Positions 23,960 to 30,640 of a stretch of DNA of 40,988 nucleotides are shown one piece after another. The position numbers were made by a program, and so were the translations under genes. This DNA is from a virus, in the UHGV virus genome UHGV-0160030. One strand, given 5' to 3'. The notes under the pieces are model-generated. The model was not told where the DNA came from. It made no database searches and was given only the letters and a program-made list of their open reading frames with translations. The stretch's first letter is position 1; each line of letters begins with the position of its first letter.

Positions 23960-24129
23960 GGTGACAGCCCCTATGTTGAATTCAATGAACTCACCACCAA
24001 GGCTTTCCACGACCATATAGGTGGTGAGACGTACAGGGGTGGAAATACCGGTCAACATAGAACCCGGCCCAACCGAAGTTGGCCCTGCACGCCCCACCAT
24101 AATTTGGGCGTAACGATGCTCATGACACG

Positions 24130-24150
24130 AAAAAACCGCATGAGCGCGGT
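24130..24150 (-). terminator. tR1-like intrinsic terminator in the early rightward operon
   Basis: plus strand aaaaaaccgcatgagcgcggt; minus transcript ACCGC-gcucau-GCGGU followed by U6. Confidence 0.55.
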
Positions 24151-24370
24151 TGTGCTCTATATTGAATTTCGGGTTTCCACGCCCGGCACCCGCTTTATAA
24201 GGTGCCTGAGCAGTGTAACGTCCCGGAATTGCAGAATCAATATTTGGTCTTGAAATGATCATATAGCTGCTGATATCTTTAGAACTGTTCTTGGATGTTT
24301 CGGAGCCGTTTTATGCGAAACAGCTCCCCGTTATTGATGTTGAGTGAGCCGGGTTACTCCCGGCTTTTTT

Positions 24371-25078: not shown

Positions 25079-25302
25079 TGTTGGTCTCCTGTGGGCTTGT
25101 CATCTTCTGTATTCGCTAGACTTGGGTGTGTATATGGAATGCTCGTATCCAGATGACAAAGAATGGCAACATCCTCCGGAACACCTCGCGTTTTCCACTT
25201 TCCAACACCTTGACTGCCACGAGGCCTTCCTTTCTTTGGGAACCTGCGACCAATAGCGGCATTGGTTTTAAATTGAATTTTTAATATTTCATAAAGGGTC
25301 AT
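25075..25302 (-). CDS. Small basic protein in the cro position, divergent from cI
   Basis: 75 aa; starts 111 bp from the cI start on the opposite strand; translationally coupled (ATGA) to next gene; weak RBS; no clear HTH. Confidence 0.35.
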   Translation of the reverse strand: MTLYEILKIQFKTNAAIGRRFPKKGRPRGSQGVGKWKTRGVPEDVAILCHLDTSIPYTHPSLANTEDDKPTGDQQ

Positions 25303-25413
25303 TCTTTAGTCTCACACCAGATACTTTGTTATCCAACGATGTTAACCACAGGAACCCAAAGTATCAAGAAATTCTGTTACTTTAGTATCAACAGCCATGA
25401 GAGGAGAAGAAAA
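25303..25413. promoter_or_regulatory. Right operator/promoter region (divergent PR/PRM-like) with CCAAAGTATCAA-type operator motifs
   Basis: GTATCA at 25361 and 25385, inverted partial copy at 25320; 12-mer CCAAAGTATCAA at 25356 repeated at 26095. Confidence 0.55.
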
Positions 25414-26070
25414 ATGAAGTCTTTAGGTGAACGTCTCATCAACGCACGGCAAAAAGCTGGGTTAACACAAGATGCGTTGGCTAAAAAAGCTGGGGTCACC
25501 AGAGTTGCAATCAGTAAAGCCGAGCAAGGCCTTACAAAAAGTTTCAACGGTGACACCCTTTTTAAAGTTGCAGCTGCACTGCAGTGTTCACCGCAGTGGC
25601 TTCAGAACGGAGATGAAAAAGATAAGCATTGGGAAAATAATGTTAAGAGCTGCCCACAGAGAGACACAGCATACTCTTACCCTGTAATTAACTGGGTTCA
25701 GGCAGGATTATTCGCAACTTCTGGTGATGACTACAACATGTATGATCAGGATAATTGGAGGCATTCTGTAAAATACGCTGGTGAGAGGGGGTTCTGGCTG
25801 GAAGTGCACGGAGACTCAATGACTTCGCCCGTAGGAATAACATTTCCTGAAGGAATGTCGATCCTTGTCAACCCAGATAAAGAAGTTTTTTCAGGGTGTT
25901 ACGTCATCGCCAGAAAAAAATCCACCAATGAAGCAACATTCAAAAAATATATTTCTGACATGGGAAAGGCGTTTCTAAAGCCCCTTAATCCACAATATCC
26001 AATCATAGAAATGGACAATGATTGCGAAATAGTAGGTGTTGTGGTTGATGCCAGGTGGGATATTTTCTAA
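25414..26070 (+). CDS. cI: CI-type repressor: N-terminal HTH plus C-terminal S24 (LexA-like) autopeptidase domain
   Basis: 218 aa from ATG 25414 with GAGGAG RBS; HTH LTQDALAKKAGVTRVAISKAEQG; Ala-Gly cleavage site; GDSM serine motif. Confidence 0.85.
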   Translation: MKSLGERLINARQKAGLTQDALAKKAGVTRVAISKAEQGLTKSFNGDTLFKVAAALQCSPQWLQNGDEKDKHWENNVKSCPQRDTAYSYPVINWVQAGLFATSGDDYNMYDQDNWRHSVKYAGERGFWLEVHGDSMTSPVGITFPEGMSILVNPDKEVFSGCYVIARKKSTNEATFKKYISDMGKAFLKPLNPQYPIIEMDNDCEIVGVVVDARWDIF

Positions 26071-26173
26071 CCAGACACAAAACACAAAAAGAAACCAAAG
26101 TATCAAAAATCACTTGCCACACCTTGATACCTTAGTTACCATAAAACAAAGTTCGTAACTGAGGTATCATCTC
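26071..26173. promoter_or_regulatory. Left operator/promoter region (PL-like) with the same operator motif
   Basis: CCAAAGTATCAA at 26095, inverted TTGATAC at 26124, GTATCA at 26164; candidate -35 TTGCCA / -10 TACCAT. Confidence 0.5.
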
Positions 26174-26590
26174 ATGATCAATAAAGCTACAACTCTTGAC
26201 TGTCTCGAAGAACTGAAAAACCTCGGCAGCCTCATTACACTAATAGCAAAAGCAACACCTGATGCTACGCTCTCTAGCGATATAGAGTCATGCGCAGGGC
26301 TGGCATGGGATATGACAAATAGCATATCCAGAAAGCTATCGTCAGCAATGCTTTTACAGAATAAAAATTCTGCAATCAACAACCGTCTTCGCACCCAACG
26401 CGAAGCCTGCGGCTTAACAACCGCCGAACTCGCCAGGCTGCTCGATCTCGATGAAGAAATTATCATCCAGTGGGAGAGCGGAGAGTATGAACCAACTATC
26501 AGTATGCTTATCCCACTGGCAAATATTCTTGGCTGCGATCCGATGTGGCTGTTAACTGGTAAACCAACAGGTGGGGATACTTGCGCATGA
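26174..26590 (+). CDS. XRE-family HTH protein with N-terminal extension, first gene of leftward operon
   Basis: 138 aa; C-terminal HTH LTTAELARLLDLDEEIIIQWESGEYEP. Confidence 0.6.
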   Translation: MINKATTLDCLEELKNLGSLITLIAKATPDATLSSDIESCAGLAWDMTNSISRKLSSAMLLQNKNSAINNRLRTQREACGLTTAELARLLDLDEEIIIQWESGEYEPTISMLIPLANILGCDPMWLLTGKPTGGDTCA

Positions 26591-26829
26591 AAAACTGTGA
26601 TGCTTACCATATTTGTCTCATTGGTGAATTGCTTGATTTCATACAAAAAAGCACTGCGCGCAATAATAAAAATATAACATATGGTGATCTGGTAATAATT
26701 TCAGAGGATATAAAGAGCATCGCTCTTAAATTCAAGAGCGACGCGAGTATTGATGACGCTATTTACGCTTATCTTGCGAAAATAATTGACGGATCCAAAA
26801 TCCAGCCTCTGGATGAACCTCGTCAGTGA
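26581..26829 (+). CDS. Hypothetical protein (82 aa)
   Basis: ORF overlapping previous gene 3' end; 3' end overlaps a convergent minus-strand gene. Confidence 0.4.
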   Translation: MRMKNCDAYHICLIGELLDFIQKSTARNNKNITYGDLVIISEDIKSIALKFKSDASIDDAIYAYLAKIIDGSKIQPLDEPRQ

Positions 26830-26986
26830 AAAACTCCTTTGATGAAGATGAGAACTGCTTCATAAACTTTACTTTATCTTCAGGTGAAACTACCTGACGA
26901 ATTAATGCGGAGATAGCAACTTTGTGCCAAATTAATTCTTTTTTGAGTTCTGAAATCTCTTTTTCGAGTTGCTCTGCGTTAATCAT
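26759..26986 (-). CDS. Hypothetical protein (75 aa), opposite strand to the surrounding operon
   Basis: Strong RBS GGAGGATAA before ATG 26986. Confidence 0.55.
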   Translation of the reverse strand: MINAEQLEKEISELKKELIWHKVAISALIRQVVSPEDKVKFMKQFSSSSKEFFTDEVHPEAGFWIRQLFSQDKRK

Positions 26987-27165
26987 TTATCCTCCATTGA
27001 GAGCTGAATTGAAAATGGGGACCAACACGCGGCTACGTGTGGTCGTGCGCCGGACACGGATAAGCATCCGGTAACTGATTATCAATCATTGCGGAAACAG
27101 TCTCAATATGAAAACACTTCTGAGACTCGCTATATAGCAGGACATATAAGTCAGCTGAGGAAGCC

Positions 27166-27531
27166 ATGAAAAAGTTCGAAAACATAACTGTTCTCCATGT
27201 TGATGACTTTGATTATACAAACCCGGAACTTCTCCCGGAGGTTGTAAAGGCAATAGATGTTGCCGATATAGTGATTAGAGGAAAGAGAATTGTCAAAAAC
27301 AGGCTCGCATGCACTTCAGAAGCAATGACAGAAACAACCTCACAGCAAGATAATTACGAAGGCATTTGTCTGGAGCCTGATTCATTTGCGGTAAATGTTT
27401 ATCATTTATTGCATGCAACACAGGTATTACATATGTCCAGTAATCACGAAACGAAAACACTCGGCAGCGAAATTCTGAATTTTGCATGTGAGTATGCAAA
27501 AACTGCTGCCGAAAAAGAATTAGCGCAATAA
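27166..27531 (+). CDS. Hypothetical protein (121 aa)
   Basis: GAGGAAG RBS; AT-rich coding sequence. Confidence 0.6.
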   Translation: MKKFENITVLHVDDFDYTNPELLPEVVKAIDVADIVIRGKRIVKNRLACTSEAMTETTSQQDNYEGICLEPDSFAVNVYHLLHATQVLHMSSNHETKTLGSEILNFACEYAKTAAEKELAQ

Positions 27532-27609
27532 CAACAAATATGCTCTGAACGTTTATTGCGGTTTTATCGCCGGGGATTGTTACAATCTTAATCCACAGGA
27601 GGATTTATT

Positions 27610-27723
27610 ATGACTTTTATAAAGAATATGGCATCACACAAGACCGCCTGTCTTATTGCACAATACGGTGAAAATTACATGCATATTGCCTGCTTATTTC
27701 TGCGTAAAGCATACGGGAAATAA
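27610..27723 (+). CDS. Micro-ORF (37 aa) with strong RBS
   Basis: ACAGGAGG then 7 nt then ATG; MTFIKNMASHKTACLIAQYGENYMHIACLFLRKAYGK; below the ORF-track size cutoff. Confidence 0.4.
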   Translation: MTFIKNMASHKTACLIAQYGENYMHIACLFLRKAYGK

Positions 27724-27726
27724 CAA

Positions 27727-28086
27727 ATGACACATGAACCCATTAATACATATCGTCGCCGTATAGCTGTTGCAGCACTCCATCGAATAAAACGTAAAAC
27801 AGGTGGTGATCTGCTTATTGTTGACCTTCTGGATGGGAACATTACGACCATAGAAATAACAGAACAGTTTATAAACCAGTTGCTGTTGCGCTTTGAAGAT
27901 ATTACCCGTGGTGAATTGGGTCGAGTGGAGGGTGAAACAGAATTCCGAACTGCATACCAGAATGCCATCGGGATTAATCAACATACTGAATACCAGGCTG
28001 AAACCGGAAAGTTAATTATAGACAACCTTTTACAAGAGGTTATTGATTACGCGAAAGAAAAATATATCAGCGGAGGAATTAACTGA
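27727..28086 (+). CDS. Hypothetical protein (119 aa)
   Basis: ORF, coupled ATGA overlap with next gene. Confidence 0.55.
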   Translation: MTHEPINTYRRRIAVAALHRIKRKTGGDLLIVDLLDGNITTIEITEQFINQLLLRFEDITRGELGRVEGETEFRTAYQNAIGINQHTEYQAETGKLIIDNLLQEVIDYAKEKYISGGIN

Positions 28087-28301
28087 TGGCTAATTTATCC
28101 CCTGTATCTGTTGTGCACGAAAAAGTGCAGATCGTTATGACAATTGAAAATGGCCAGGTAACAGATGTCTGCAAAGTCCGCGATGGAGAGCTGATTGCCA
28201 GCATGGATACATTCATATGGCTGGCAGAAAGAGCGGGGTATCAGATAACAGCACCTGCTCAGGAGGAAACCAGTGACATTAACAGCAACGCGAATTCCTG
28301 A
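28086..28301 (+). CDS. Hypothetical protein (71 aa)
   Basis: ORF, ATGA overlap with previous gene. Confidence 0.5.
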   Translation: MANLSPVSVVHEKVQIVMTIENGQVTDVCKVRDGELIASMDTFIWLAERAGYQITAPAQEETSDINSNANS

Positions 28302-28491
28302 GTGGGTCCACCAGCAGGCGTTGCTGGTCCTGCGGCGGTACAGATGCCGACGTATATTCCCGCATCGGATACAGCGCAACGGATATCTCAGTCTGAAGGT
28401 TAACCGTCGCTGGCGGCTGTTATCGAAAGACGACGGCCGGAACTGGGAAATAATGAGTCATGAACGTTATTCGGGAGAAATAAAGAAATGA
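28273..28491 (+). CDS. Hypothetical arginine-rich small protein (72 aa)
   Basis: GTG start 6 nt after AGGAGG; Arg-rich LLVLRRYRCRRIFPHRIQRNG...RRWRLL. Confidence 0.5.
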   Translation: MTLTATRIPEWVHQQALLVLRRYRCRRIFPHRIQRNGYLSLKVNRRWRLLSKDDGRNWEIMSHERYSGEIKK

Positions 28492-28880
28492 TCGACAACC
28501 GCACCGCCAGCGCCATTGACCAGGCATTACAGAAACATGATACACCCGTCGGCCCGTTATTTTTTGTAACACATCACGGAAGAACAAAAAAATGCCTCAC
28601 TCGAAAAACGGCAATTCGTTACCTGGCATTCTTTATGACCACCCGCGCTTTTGAACGTTCAGGATTCCGACAACGCCATCCTGACAAGCGTTTTATCTTC
28701 AACGGGAATGAAATATGGAAACGTGGAGAATCAACCACAGAGTACACCCGCGCACACCAGCGAACAATCAGACGACTGCGCAGACTCATCGCCAGGAAAC
28801 AGTATACAGAAAAATGGTTCAGAAAATATGACACATGGAGCGCCGGATATTACGAACTGATGGCAACAAAACCATTCTGA
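28488..28880 (+). CDS. Hypothetical basic protein (130 aa)
   Basis: ATGA overlap with previous gene. Confidence 0.55.
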   Translation: MIDNRTASAIDQALQKHDTPVGPLFFVTHHGRTKKCLTRKTAIRYLAFFMTTRAFERSGFRQRHPDKRFIFNGNEIWKRGESTTEYTRAHQRTIRRLRRLIARKQYTEKWFRKYDTWSAGYYELMATKPF

Positions 28881-28940
28881 CGTAAACGAAATTAACCATG
28901 ACGCAATTAAATAAGGCAAGCTGAATACAGCAGGAGGACC

Positions 28941-29129
28941 ATGAACATTTATTTCAGAATAGTTATATCACTGGCAATTATCGCATGTATTTACGGATTG
29001 CTCGTCCCGTTTCTGATATCAATGAAGGATACGGTAGCGGTGATTTCTGGCTTTGCACTGACGTTTCTAACCCCGCCATGTATTTATACCATTTATAAGG
29101 GGCTTTCTTTCACTAAGGATAAAAGATGA
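28941..29129 (+). CDS. Small two-transmembrane-helix protein (62 aa), coupled to SPFH gene
   Basis: AGGAGG RBS; two hydrophobic helices; stop overlaps start of next gene (ATGA). Confidence 0.65.
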   Translation: MNIYFRIVISLAIIACIYGLLVPFLISMKDTVAVISGFALTFLTPPCIYTIYKGLSFTKDKR

Positions 29130-29953
29130 AAAAAATTATTTTTTCTTTAGCCATTGTTCTGCCTGCCATTGGCCTTGTCGGTTGTGATCGTGTTGAGCCT
29201 GGTAATGTGGGCATCAAAGTCAACAAACTTGGCGACGACAAAGGCGTCGGTGAAGTGGTCGGTGTTGGTCGCTACTGGACAGGCTGGAACACTGAAGTTT
29301 ATATCTTCCCGACCTTTAAGCAGATGAAGACCTACGATGATCCATTCAGTTTCCAGATGAGCGATGGAACAACCATTGGTTACCACATCGGAGTAGCCTA
29401 CAAGGTTGATCCATCCAAAGTTACCACAGTCTTTCAGACCTACCGCAAAGGCGTGGACGACATTACCGACACCGACCTGCGCCAGAAGATAGCCGACGCA
29501 CTCAACCGACTGGCCAGCAAAATGACCACCGACAAATTTATCGACGGCGGCAAGTCTGAGCTGCTGGATGCAGCTCTTAAAGACATTCAGGAAGAAATGA
29601 CGCCCATCGGTATTCAGGTAATAAGCCTCTCATATGTGGGTAAGCCGGAGTACCCGCCTACTGTTATCGACAGCATTAATGCCAAAGTCACGGCGAACCA
29701 GAAAACTCTGCAACGCGAGCAGGAAGTAAAACAGCGCGAAGCGGAAGCCAACATGTTGCGCGCGGAAGCTGCCGGACAGGCTGATGCGATTCGCACAAAA
29801 GCCCAGGCTGAAGCCGATGCTATTCGTTTACGCGGTGAAGCTCTGCGTCAGAACCCCGGTGTTATGGAGCTGGAAGCCATCAATAAATGGAACGGCACGC
29901 TGCCGCAATACATGACCAGCGGTGCCAATACACCATTTATCCAGGTTAAATAA
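29126..29953 (+). CDS. SPFH/band-7 (stomatin/prohibitin/HflKC-like) domain lipoprotein
   Basis: 275 aa; signal peptide with lipobox LVGC; coiled-coil Ala/Glu/Gln-rich C-terminal region typical of SPFH proteins. Confidence 0.7.
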   Translation: MKKIIFSLAIVLPAIGLVGCDRVEPGNVGIKVNKLGDDKGVGEVVGVGRYWTGWNTEVYIFPTFKQMKTYDDPFSFQMSDGTTIGYHIGVAYKVDPSKVTTVFQTYRKGVDDITDTDLRQKIADALNRLASKMTTDKFIDGGKSELLDAALKDIQEEMTPIGIQVISLSYVGKPEYPPTVIDSINAKVTANQKTLQREQEVKQREAEANMLRAEAAGQADAIRTKAQAEADAIRLRGEALRQNPGVMELEAINKWNGTLPQYMTSGANTPFIQVK

Positions 29954-30024
29954 CTTAATATGCCCGGCAGGCCGTCGGGCTAAGGGAAAAGCAGATAAAC
30001 ACTCATAATACTCAACCGCAAATA

Positions 30025-30366
30025 ATGAACTATGACCCAAATCTGACGTCATGCGGACGCATGGCGAAACAAACCGTTCGATTAACTTTCGGGCAATGGG
30101 AATACCGCGAAACATTCGAAGTCACTGTCGGTGGCAACCTGACCGGACTCGATGTTATCAGTTGCGCTATTGAAAGCCTGTACGCAACGCTGCCTTATGA
30201 AGAAGTCGAGGATGAGCGTACAGGGGAAACAGATATCATGGCCACCATTAATATTGGCGAACTGACATGCCAGGATGAAGACCTGTCCGGAGAGCTCTGG
30301 CTTGCCGGGATGCTTATCTCAGCAGAAATTATCAGTATTGAACCCGCTACAAACATACGGCTCTGA
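30025..30366 (+). CDS. Hypothetical acidic protein
   Basis: ORF; start ambiguous (ATG 30025 or 30061), both with weak RBS. Confidence 0.4.
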   Translation: MNYDPNLTSCGRMAKQTVRLTFGQWEYRETFEVTVGGNLTGLDVISCAIESLYATLPYEEVEDERTGETDIMATINIGELTCQDEDLSGELWLAGMLISAEIISIEPATNIRL

Positions 30367-30397
30367 AGTTCTCACTATTCAGAGAGCAGGAGAAAAA

Positions 30398-30640
30398 ATG
30401 TTCGCTTTGATTAATCAGGGACAACTGTATACCGACAGTGCCGGTTACCCGGTAATAATTATTCGCTGCATAAACAACACTGTGTTGTACAGAAGAATTG
30501 ATGGGCGAACACAGTCAGTAAAAATAAACGATTTCAATGAACTGTTTGAACGGATTGATCACCAGGAATACCGACAAATTCTGGCAGAAACAGAGCAGGA
30601 GGCTCATCTGAAAAAATTACGGGCCATGAAAAGGAAGTAA
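30398..30640 (+). CDS. Hypothetical protein (80 aa)
   Basis: ATG 30398 preceded by AGGAG; the track start is an upstream extension. Confidence 0.55.
   Translation: MFALINQGQLYTDSAGYPVIIIRCINNTVLYRRIDGRTQSVKINDFNELFERIDHQEYRQILAETEQEAHLKKLRAMKRK

Follow-up and report, generated by a model that had tools for sequence, protein, structure and literature searches.

A mosaic early-left accessory segment of a phiP27-like lambdoid prophage encodes a small protein with a predicted RelE/ParE-superfamily fold

Introduction

In phage lambda, the host-toxic early-left gene kil is silenced by the repressor. RegB of phage T4, a solitary early endoribonuclease with the RelE/YoeB fold, inactivates mRNAs without a classical antitoxin (PMC3014915), while the addictive paaR2-paaA2-parE2 system of the cryptic lambdoid prophage CP-933P in Escherichia coli O157:H7 is co-transcribed with a CI-like repressor (PMC8630535). 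Here, we describe a block of six small genes, named A to F, in the virus genome UHGV-0160030, of which a stretch of 40,988 nucleotides (nt) was analyzed as a whole (hereafter the window), and in particular gene E, whose product is predicted to adopt a fold of the RelE/ParE superfamily.

Comparison with these systems places the locus as follows. Genes A to F share position and orientation with the accessory early-left genes of lambda (kil, cIII, ral and ea, and the nin/ea/b-region-like genes in general), and they also share small packed open reading frames (ORFs), mosaic assortment and a lower GC content, but they are not homologous to kil, cIII, ral or ea by PHROG, Pfam and NCBIfam. Their slot is the classical accessory early-left position of lambdoid phages, and the region is a typical and fairly ordinary mosaic early-left accessory segment with one assignable gene, E. 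The product of E is shorter than RelE, HigB, YoeB, YafQ and ParE and is predicted to have a single N-terminal helix, and unlike the toxins of the RelE/ParE superfamily it has no constant adjacent antitoxin and sits in what appears to be a repressor-controlled phage early operon. The CP-933P system is expressed in the lysogen, whereas E lies beyond OL-type operators in a putative lytic early-left unit; moreover, D and C were unrelated to PaaA2 and PaaR2 in every search, and the partner genes of E are dispensable across its relatives. The likeness to T4 RegB is a proposed functional analogy, E being known here from its sequence and a predicted model.

Results

Searches of the six proteins against Pfam, NCBIfam and the PADLOC defense models returned a single real assignment, namely that of E to Pfam PF24732, a ParE-like toxin domain. 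The score of E, 63.7 bits (E = 1.6e-17), exceeds the gathering threshold of 24.4, the alignment takes in positions 1-65 of the 67 in the model, and the statement of the preliminary description that no motif could be assigned to any of the six genes does not apply to E. PF24732 is carried by every E homologue that the protein database lists, and PGAP (NCBI) names E after this domain, so that E already has a Pfam entry and a PGAP name. One deposited Klebsiella phage record independently labels an E homologue "mRNA interferase HigB". Our literature search turned up no publication dealing with PF24732 or with the genes described here. An AlphaFold2 model of E built with 65 homologues (predicted local distance difference test, pLDDT, 95; predicted template modeling score, pTM, 0.80) begins with a short strand and one long helix, which are followed by three strands and, at the C-terminus, by a further helix. 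In the fold search this predicted model was placed in the RelE/ParE structural superfamily, the fold of which has one or more N-terminal helices against an antiparallel sheet of 3-4 strands and ends in a short helix; the match list mixes several activities, and on this basis E is a protein with a minimal RelE/ParE-superfamily fold. Comparison of E with PDB chains, both as a single sequence and as a family profile, gave no sequence-level match to a solved structure.

Conservation was compared down to homologues with 38-40% identity, which come from a P2-like Salmonella phage and a Murrayvirus. The residues P9, L20, W47, R48, G55, W58, H63 and Y66 were invariant and E64 nearly so; in the model, R48 lies in the middle strand, and H63, E64 and Y66 lie where the last strand meets the C-terminal helix. 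In the RNase branch of the superfamily the catalytic residues are R61, R81 and Y87 in RelE and R65, H83 and Y84 in YoeB, with a similar arrangement in HigB. R48, H63, Y66 and possibly E64 of E thus likely occupy the strand-3 and C-terminal positions of the RelE/YoeB/HigB active sites in the predicted model, and they are candidate active residues. The core WRLLS...W.LMSHE.Y is kept in the E-like genes of both distant phages, although these stand in different surroundings: in the P2-like Salmonella phage SW3 (L119, 2468-2695) the gene lies between Dam and Dcm methyltransferase genes, and in the Murrayvirus Escherichia phage vB-Eco-KMB41 (L117, 800-1036) it lies just upstream of the lysis cassette with neighbors unrelated to C or F. 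Relatives of E on plasmids were mostly found on non-mobilizable, phage-like replicons of 37-41 kb; judged from these sequence contexts, the family is essentially phage-borne, and no classical plasmid toxin–antitoxin (TA) contexts were found.

The arrangement of the block was compared across two sets of related loci, one selected for a relative of E (114 loci, of which GTDB genomes contributed 34 and IMG/VR contigs 80, plus the locus of strain ZH063, L001, giving 115) and one selected for a relative of C (80 loci collected, 77 usable). Upstream of E in the first set, D was found in 91 loci, C directly in 14 and members of other families in 5, with 5 not resolved; downstream of E, F was found in 75 and one of 12 other families, including xis, in the remainder, and four loci had neither D nor F beside E. 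The C-selected loci showed the patterns BCDEF (41 of 77), BC--- (14), BCDE- (9), BC--F (9), BC-EF (2), -CDEF (1) and BC-E- (1). Accordingly, C nearly always has B ahead of it and D nearly always occurs with E, while E, F and B are each also found without their neighbors in the window. Where D-E-F is missing, the slot after C is taken by a 167-aa (amino acid) family that is found elsewhere after E, and in loci without E, F follows directly after C or D. In the Salmonella phage Fels-1, B, C, D and F are present and E is absent, so that D abuts F, and an Stx1a-converting phage and PhiR49_2 both carry B without C, followed by unrelated genes. These neighbor patterns, taken together with the three phages just mentioned, indicate from sequence comparison that the block is a patchwork of accessory cassettes, namely A, B(-C), D, E and F, each of which assorts on its own. 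With at least four such cassettes across some 190 related loci, the earlier view of an operon of six tightly coupled genes cannot be upheld in the sense of one functional unit.

Databases contain apparent in-frame fusions of neighboring cassette genes, joining B to C (P0155), D to E (P0326, P0011 and P0014, from metagenomes) and C to E (a read-through in a Pseudocitrobacter genome, L010, 3623-4219). Their use as Rosetta-stone evidence of interaction was rejected: the fusions are rare and some have frameshifted segments, and they were for this reason treated as stop-loss variants or as sequencing or assembly artefacts, which they probably are, although they could be natural variants.

All six ORFs of the preliminary description were found at the coordinates given there (Table 1), as were the details that it reported for B and E: an AGGAGG ribosome-binding site of B (27597-27602, 7 nt ahead of the ATG), an AGGAGG (28261-28266) 6 nt ahead of the GTG start of E, and an arginine-rich composition of E (13 of its 72 residues). 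Two further claims were borne out in part. The chain of ATGA-type overlaps holds for two of the five junctions, that of C and D (TGATG, 1-nt overlap) and that of E and F (ATGA coupling), but not for A/B (78-nt gap), B/C (3-nt gap) or D/E (29-nt overlap in different frames). The region is indeed AT-rich (43.3% GC as compared to 51.4% at positions 1-24000), but unevenly so: A, B and C, with 37-40% GC, drive this difference, and E has 51.6%. The boundary of the block at six genes is arbitrary, as the same-strand chain begins at a helix-turn-helix (HTH) gene ahead of A and continues past F through G (28941), the SPFH lipoprotein gene H, DUF5406, DUF4222 and xis to int.

The ORFs were judged to be genuine because of PHROG matches for A, C, D, E and F (E = 1e-25 to 1e-82) and because of low median pairwise dN/dS values, determined with dozens of distinct homologues, of 0.23 for B, 0.15 for C, 0.28 for D, 0.19 for E and 0.19 for F. 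Variation between the codons of B is dominated by third positions, as expected of coding sequence. By these sequence criteria all six are genes and not chance ORFs, with B to F under purifying selection. The annotation by PGAP differs in that A starts at an internal ATG (27325), which yields a protein of 68 aa, and in that B is omitted.

Table 1. Positions in the window of the six genes and of the regulatory features ahead of them.
Feature	Position	Strand	Description
Gene A	27166-27531	+	121 aa; phrog_5451, phrog_4587
Gene B	27610-27723	+	37 aa; conserved microprotein with strong ribosome-binding site
Gene C	27727-28086	+	119 aa; Arg-rich N-terminal helix, fold orphan (predicted model)
Gene D	28086-28301	+	71 aa; isoelectric point (pI) 4.3; phrog_340
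Gene E	28273-28491	+	72 aa; pI 11.3; GTG start; Pfam PF24732 ParE_like
Gene F	28488-28880	+	130 aa; pI 10.8; phrog_1886
OR-like operator cluster	25355-25390		between cro and cI; ACYWWRGTATCA and inverted copies
OL-like operator cluster with PL-like promoter	26094-26169	+	directly after the cI stop; ACYWWRGTATCA matches
XRE/DicA-like HTH protein	26174-26590	+	138 aa; first gene past the OL-like operators

The 12-nt motif ACYWWRGTATCA, with at most one mismatch allowed, has nine matches in the window where 1.4 were expected, and six of the nine fall into the two operator-like clusters, which are moreover connected by inverted repeats. Their location on either side of cI is, by sequence, that of an OR/OL arrangement. 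A consensus scan found a promoter-like TTGCCA-17-TACCAT at 26114-26142 beneath the distal, OL-like cluster, whereas from 25225 to 30438 the plus strand was free of terminator-like sites. The first gene beyond these operators encodes the HTH protein, which matches Pfam HTH_3 (2.6e-11) and the DicA subfamily of NCBIfam (9e-12). A second operator set beyond cI, co-orientation with xis/int and a continuous unit, all features of a lambdoid early-left region, were thus found, the promoter being a consensus match. Given the operators, the same-strand genes and the lack of a plus-strand terminator-like site in this interval, A to F look like the middle of one long cI-repressed early-left unit of the PL type, which would run from the PL-like start to xis/int. 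The gene chain of this unit is interrupted by an antisense gene of 75 aa (minus strand, 26759-26986, phrog_20080), which comes with a separate terminator-like hairpin at 26744-26717. An 82-aa plus-strand ORF (26581-26829) that is not called by PGAP overlaps this gene with its 3' end.

Comparison of the 3.1 kb around the six genes with complete genomes showed 99.6% identity to prophages of 17 of 20 complete E. coli genomes among the matches listed, and at least 80% of this stretch was present in 33 genomes. Among named phages, phiP27 and PhiR49_2 come closest, and what they have in common with the stretch is limited to its first half (for PhiR49_2, PV340570.1, approximately 27% of the query was matched with 98% identity). 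The prophage of strain ZH063 shows the order Rha-type regulators, LexA-family (S24) repressor, HTH protein and genes A to F, followed by the SPFH lipoprotein, DUF5406, DUF4222, excisionase and integrase genes and by a chromosomal DUF72 gene of the yecE type. Based on this gene order and on the nearest named phages, the element is, by sequence, a lambdoid prophage similar to phiP27 and Stx phages and integrated next to yecE. The ZH063 order and the OL-like cluster upstream also confirm that the block lies between the immunity region and xis/int, and the reported absence of exo/bet/gam-type genes agrees with the RefSeq annotation, from cI to int, of a 99.6% identical prophage.

With regard to the other five genes, the designation as genes of unknown function stands for A, B, C, D and F after Pfam, NCBIfam, PADLOC, PHROG, PDB-sequence and fold searches, but not for E with its RelE/ParE family and fold; in these profile and structure searches the six proteins did not all resolve to known families of early-left genes. 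The PADLOC models gave no match to any of the six except for a weak one to C (E = 0.0076). Gene A matches phrog_5451 (1.7e-82) and phrog_4587 (2e-28) over residues 57-121, and its wide conservation is limited to the C-terminal ca. 60 aa (27343-27531). An iterated hidden Markov model (HMM) found this domain in 102 of 200 fetched loci, in addition to the window, either alone (ORFs of 53-121 aa) or fused N-terminally to an HTH domain (139-230 aa). By its sequence, A represents, as a protein of its own, the N-terminal domain of XRE regulators of 139-192 aa that are encoded directly after the operators, at the first early-left position, in related phages, and its occurrence alone or in fusion with an XRE regulator suggests a regulator-modulating role. 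A likeness of the A domain to a 69-aa ORF located between B and C in one locus (L072) and to the N-terminus of the HTH protein of the window was dropped, as neither HMM nor BLASTP searches confirmed it.

The B family comprises proteins of 32-44 aa with the motif A..A..L...G...IA.LYLRKAYG, in which the C-terminal LRKAYG is almost invariant, with a conserved KAYG[RK]-stop as the end of the gene, and a helix-turn-helix-hairpin-like sequence pattern. Its members share 49-68% identity across prophages of Enterobacterales, from Escherichia to Cronobacter and Salmonella, and are often unannotated, being absent from PGAP and from many phage records; the PHROG scan of the family gave no clear family and one weak unnamed match. 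As judged from sequence, B is a conserved, under-annotated microprotein. Gene C encodes a protein with the conserved arginine-rich N-terminal helix YRRRI..AAL.R..RKTG and a compact predicted fold (pLDDT 88). A profile HMM search of 1.84 billion representatives showed a small family without domain fusions, confined to enterobacterial temperate phages, and no meaningful PDB match was obtained with the family profile, nor any Pfam hit among ten distant relatives; with its confident predicted fold and no match to it, C is a fold orphan.

Gene D matches phrog_340 (2e-25) and, weakly (5.6e-5), the C-terminal part of an anti-repressor PHROG, and F matches phrog_1886 (6e-59) and has no detectable relatives outside this PHROG. 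Searches with the single sequences, with family profiles and, for Pfam, over every aligned family member found no Pfam or PDB relative of either D or F, and no HTH, ribbon-helix-helix, AbrB or Phd-type domain was detected in them by Pfam, NCBIfam and PDB-profile searches. Directly after F (28941-29953), a 62-aa hydrophobic protein G (phrog_1130, membrane protein/moron) and H, a 275-aa SPFH/Band-7 lipoprotein (Pfam 2.9e-31), are encoded by ATGA-coupled genes. In many loci this G-H pair accompanies D-E-F, and a membrane-acting exclusion or moron function is conceivable for it.

On the minus strand at 24017-24218, downstream of two Rha-type genes of the rightward early operon, Rfam identified a C4 antisense RNA (24017-24104, 82 bits) and an isrK Hfq-binding RNA (24129-24205, 62 bits), together with a sub-threshold match to an a1/b1 C4-target element (24166-24218). 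From its sequence, this stretch looks like an antisense-controlled antirepressor module of the P1/P7 style within a lambdoid prophage.

Discussion

Here, we propose by analogy with T4 RegB that E is a repressor-gated early toxin, either an mRNA interferase or another poison, with the acidic D as an optional partner, a scheme for which we consider the chances of being right and wrong evenly balanced. Once cI repression is lost by induction or infection, the PL transcript would express the whole gene set. E, a small basic protein, would then poison the cell in the manner of RelE/HigB, most likely as a ribosome-associated mRNA endonuclease, and its activity would shut down host translation early in lytic growth, as in the case of RegB. 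D, which is acidic in contrast to the basic E and overlaps with it, would serve as an optional E-associated modulator or inhibitor, A would probably modulate the XRE regulator by heteromerization, and B, C and F would be separate candidates for host takeover or anti-defense. Because the prophage repressor would keep E silent in lysogens, E would need no antitoxin of the addiction type. Several observations weigh against this proposal. E has 72 aa as compared to 84-121 aa in known toxins and, in the model, one N-terminal helix and not two. The totals of the promoter and terminator scans do not exceed those of shuffled controls, for which reason the PL-like promoter and the single sites are to be taken as leads only; a PL-driven unit is argued from consensus scans, and read-through of the cI transcript may occur in lysogens. 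Finally, D is almost never found without E, Fels-1 being the sole case seen, which also fits a cognate antitoxin.

This last point leads to the possibility that D and E, maybe with C or F, form a canonical type II TA addiction module that stabilizes the prophage in the manner of paaR2-paaA2-parE2. The order of a small acidic protein first and a small basic toxin-fold protein second, with overlapping genes, is what would be expected of such a module, as are the RelE/ParE fold of E and the presence of D ahead of E in the large majority of E-selected loci, and an addictive TA system of the ParE family in a lambdoid immunity region has been documented (PMC8630535). However, the antitoxin of such a module should always be adjacent, since an indispensable antitoxin predicts that the toxin never occurs alone, and E was found without D in 17 loci (14 of the 115 E-selected and 3 of the 77 C-selected ones), with neither D nor F in four; the E-like genes of other phage types, with their unrelated neighbors, are likewise the opposite of this expectation. 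An autoregulating DNA-binding antitoxin was not seen either: D has no detectable DNA-binding domain and belongs to no known antitoxin family, the same domains are missing from F, and there is no intergenic promoter. As the stop of C overlaps the start of D, no space is left for D-E to have a promoter or operator of its own. Furthermore, the pair lies downstream of repressor-controlled operators and outside the repressor operon, and the family is found essentially in phages and not in the plasmid settings typical of TA systems. A TA module is therefore regarded as unlikely. From the neighbor patterns, we prefer the reading that E has no obligate neighbor and is silenced by the repressor and not by an obligatory antitoxin, with D as an optional modulator, because E occurs without D.

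Alternatively, E might be a catalytically inert protein with a RelE fold, acting either as a ribosome- or antitoxin-binding decoy against TA-based abortive infection or as a small regulator. Its minimal form without a second N-terminal helix would be in line with this, as would the absence of an obligate neutralizer, its wide distribution in phages, some of them apparently virulent, and the several different activities served by the RelE/ParE fold. The distribution of conservation speaks for an active protein: the most conserved residues are charged or aromatic (R48, H63, E64, Y66, W47 and W58) and are concentrated in strand 3 and around the point where strand 4 passes into the C-terminal helix, the locations of the active sites in RelE-type RNases. 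The strong purifying selection on E fits active and inert readings alike, and we consider an inert E improbable, to about the same degree as a TA module.

The lambda N protein is intrinsically disordered. The idea that C is an N-like antiterminator, whose arginine-rich stretch would bind a nut-type hairpin and allow read-through to xis/int, can draw on the conserved arginine-rich helix, on a size close to that of N and on a location near the start of the early-left operon, but it is hardly tenable and an identity with the lambda N/nut system was rejected, as C is predicted to be folded, unlike N, the RNA between A and B shows no structure in excess of shuffled controls (z = 0.37), the boxA-like CGCTCTTAA occurs just once, which is the chance level, and lacks a counterpart in the rightward operon, an Rfam scan of the region was empty and there is no plus-strand terminator-like site to override before 30439.

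The roles in host takeover, exclusion and anti-defense that had been suggested for this slot are plausible, with E and its toxin fold as the one point in their support. What is of most interest beyond this is the B-C pair and a toxin under the control of a repressor rather than an antitoxin. The pair B-C, whose members are neighbors nearly wherever C occurs, might serve host takeover or counter-defense by binding nucleic acids or ribosomes, and D-E could represent a design in which a minimal RelE-fold poison, silenced by the repressor and not by an obligatory antitoxin, commits the induced cell to lysis. That B-C is a new two-component early phage effector and that D-E follows such a repressor-gated design appears doubtful to us.

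The locus comparison splits a block of hypothetical genes into defined, separable units, and it flags the microprotein B, which is often missed by standard annotation, and C with its small family of fold orphans. Unless toxicity or a phenotype can be demonstrated, the practical importance is modest. The same cassettes are found in many prophages of E. coli, Klebsiella, Enterobacter, Citrobacter and Salmonella, including Fels-1 and relatives of Stx-converting phages. If the proposed role is true, E would be a temperate-phage counterpart of T4 RegB, and in lysogens of clinical relevance a toxin-fold gene expressed only on induction could have an effect on burst size, on host shut-off and on what becomes of the induced cells.

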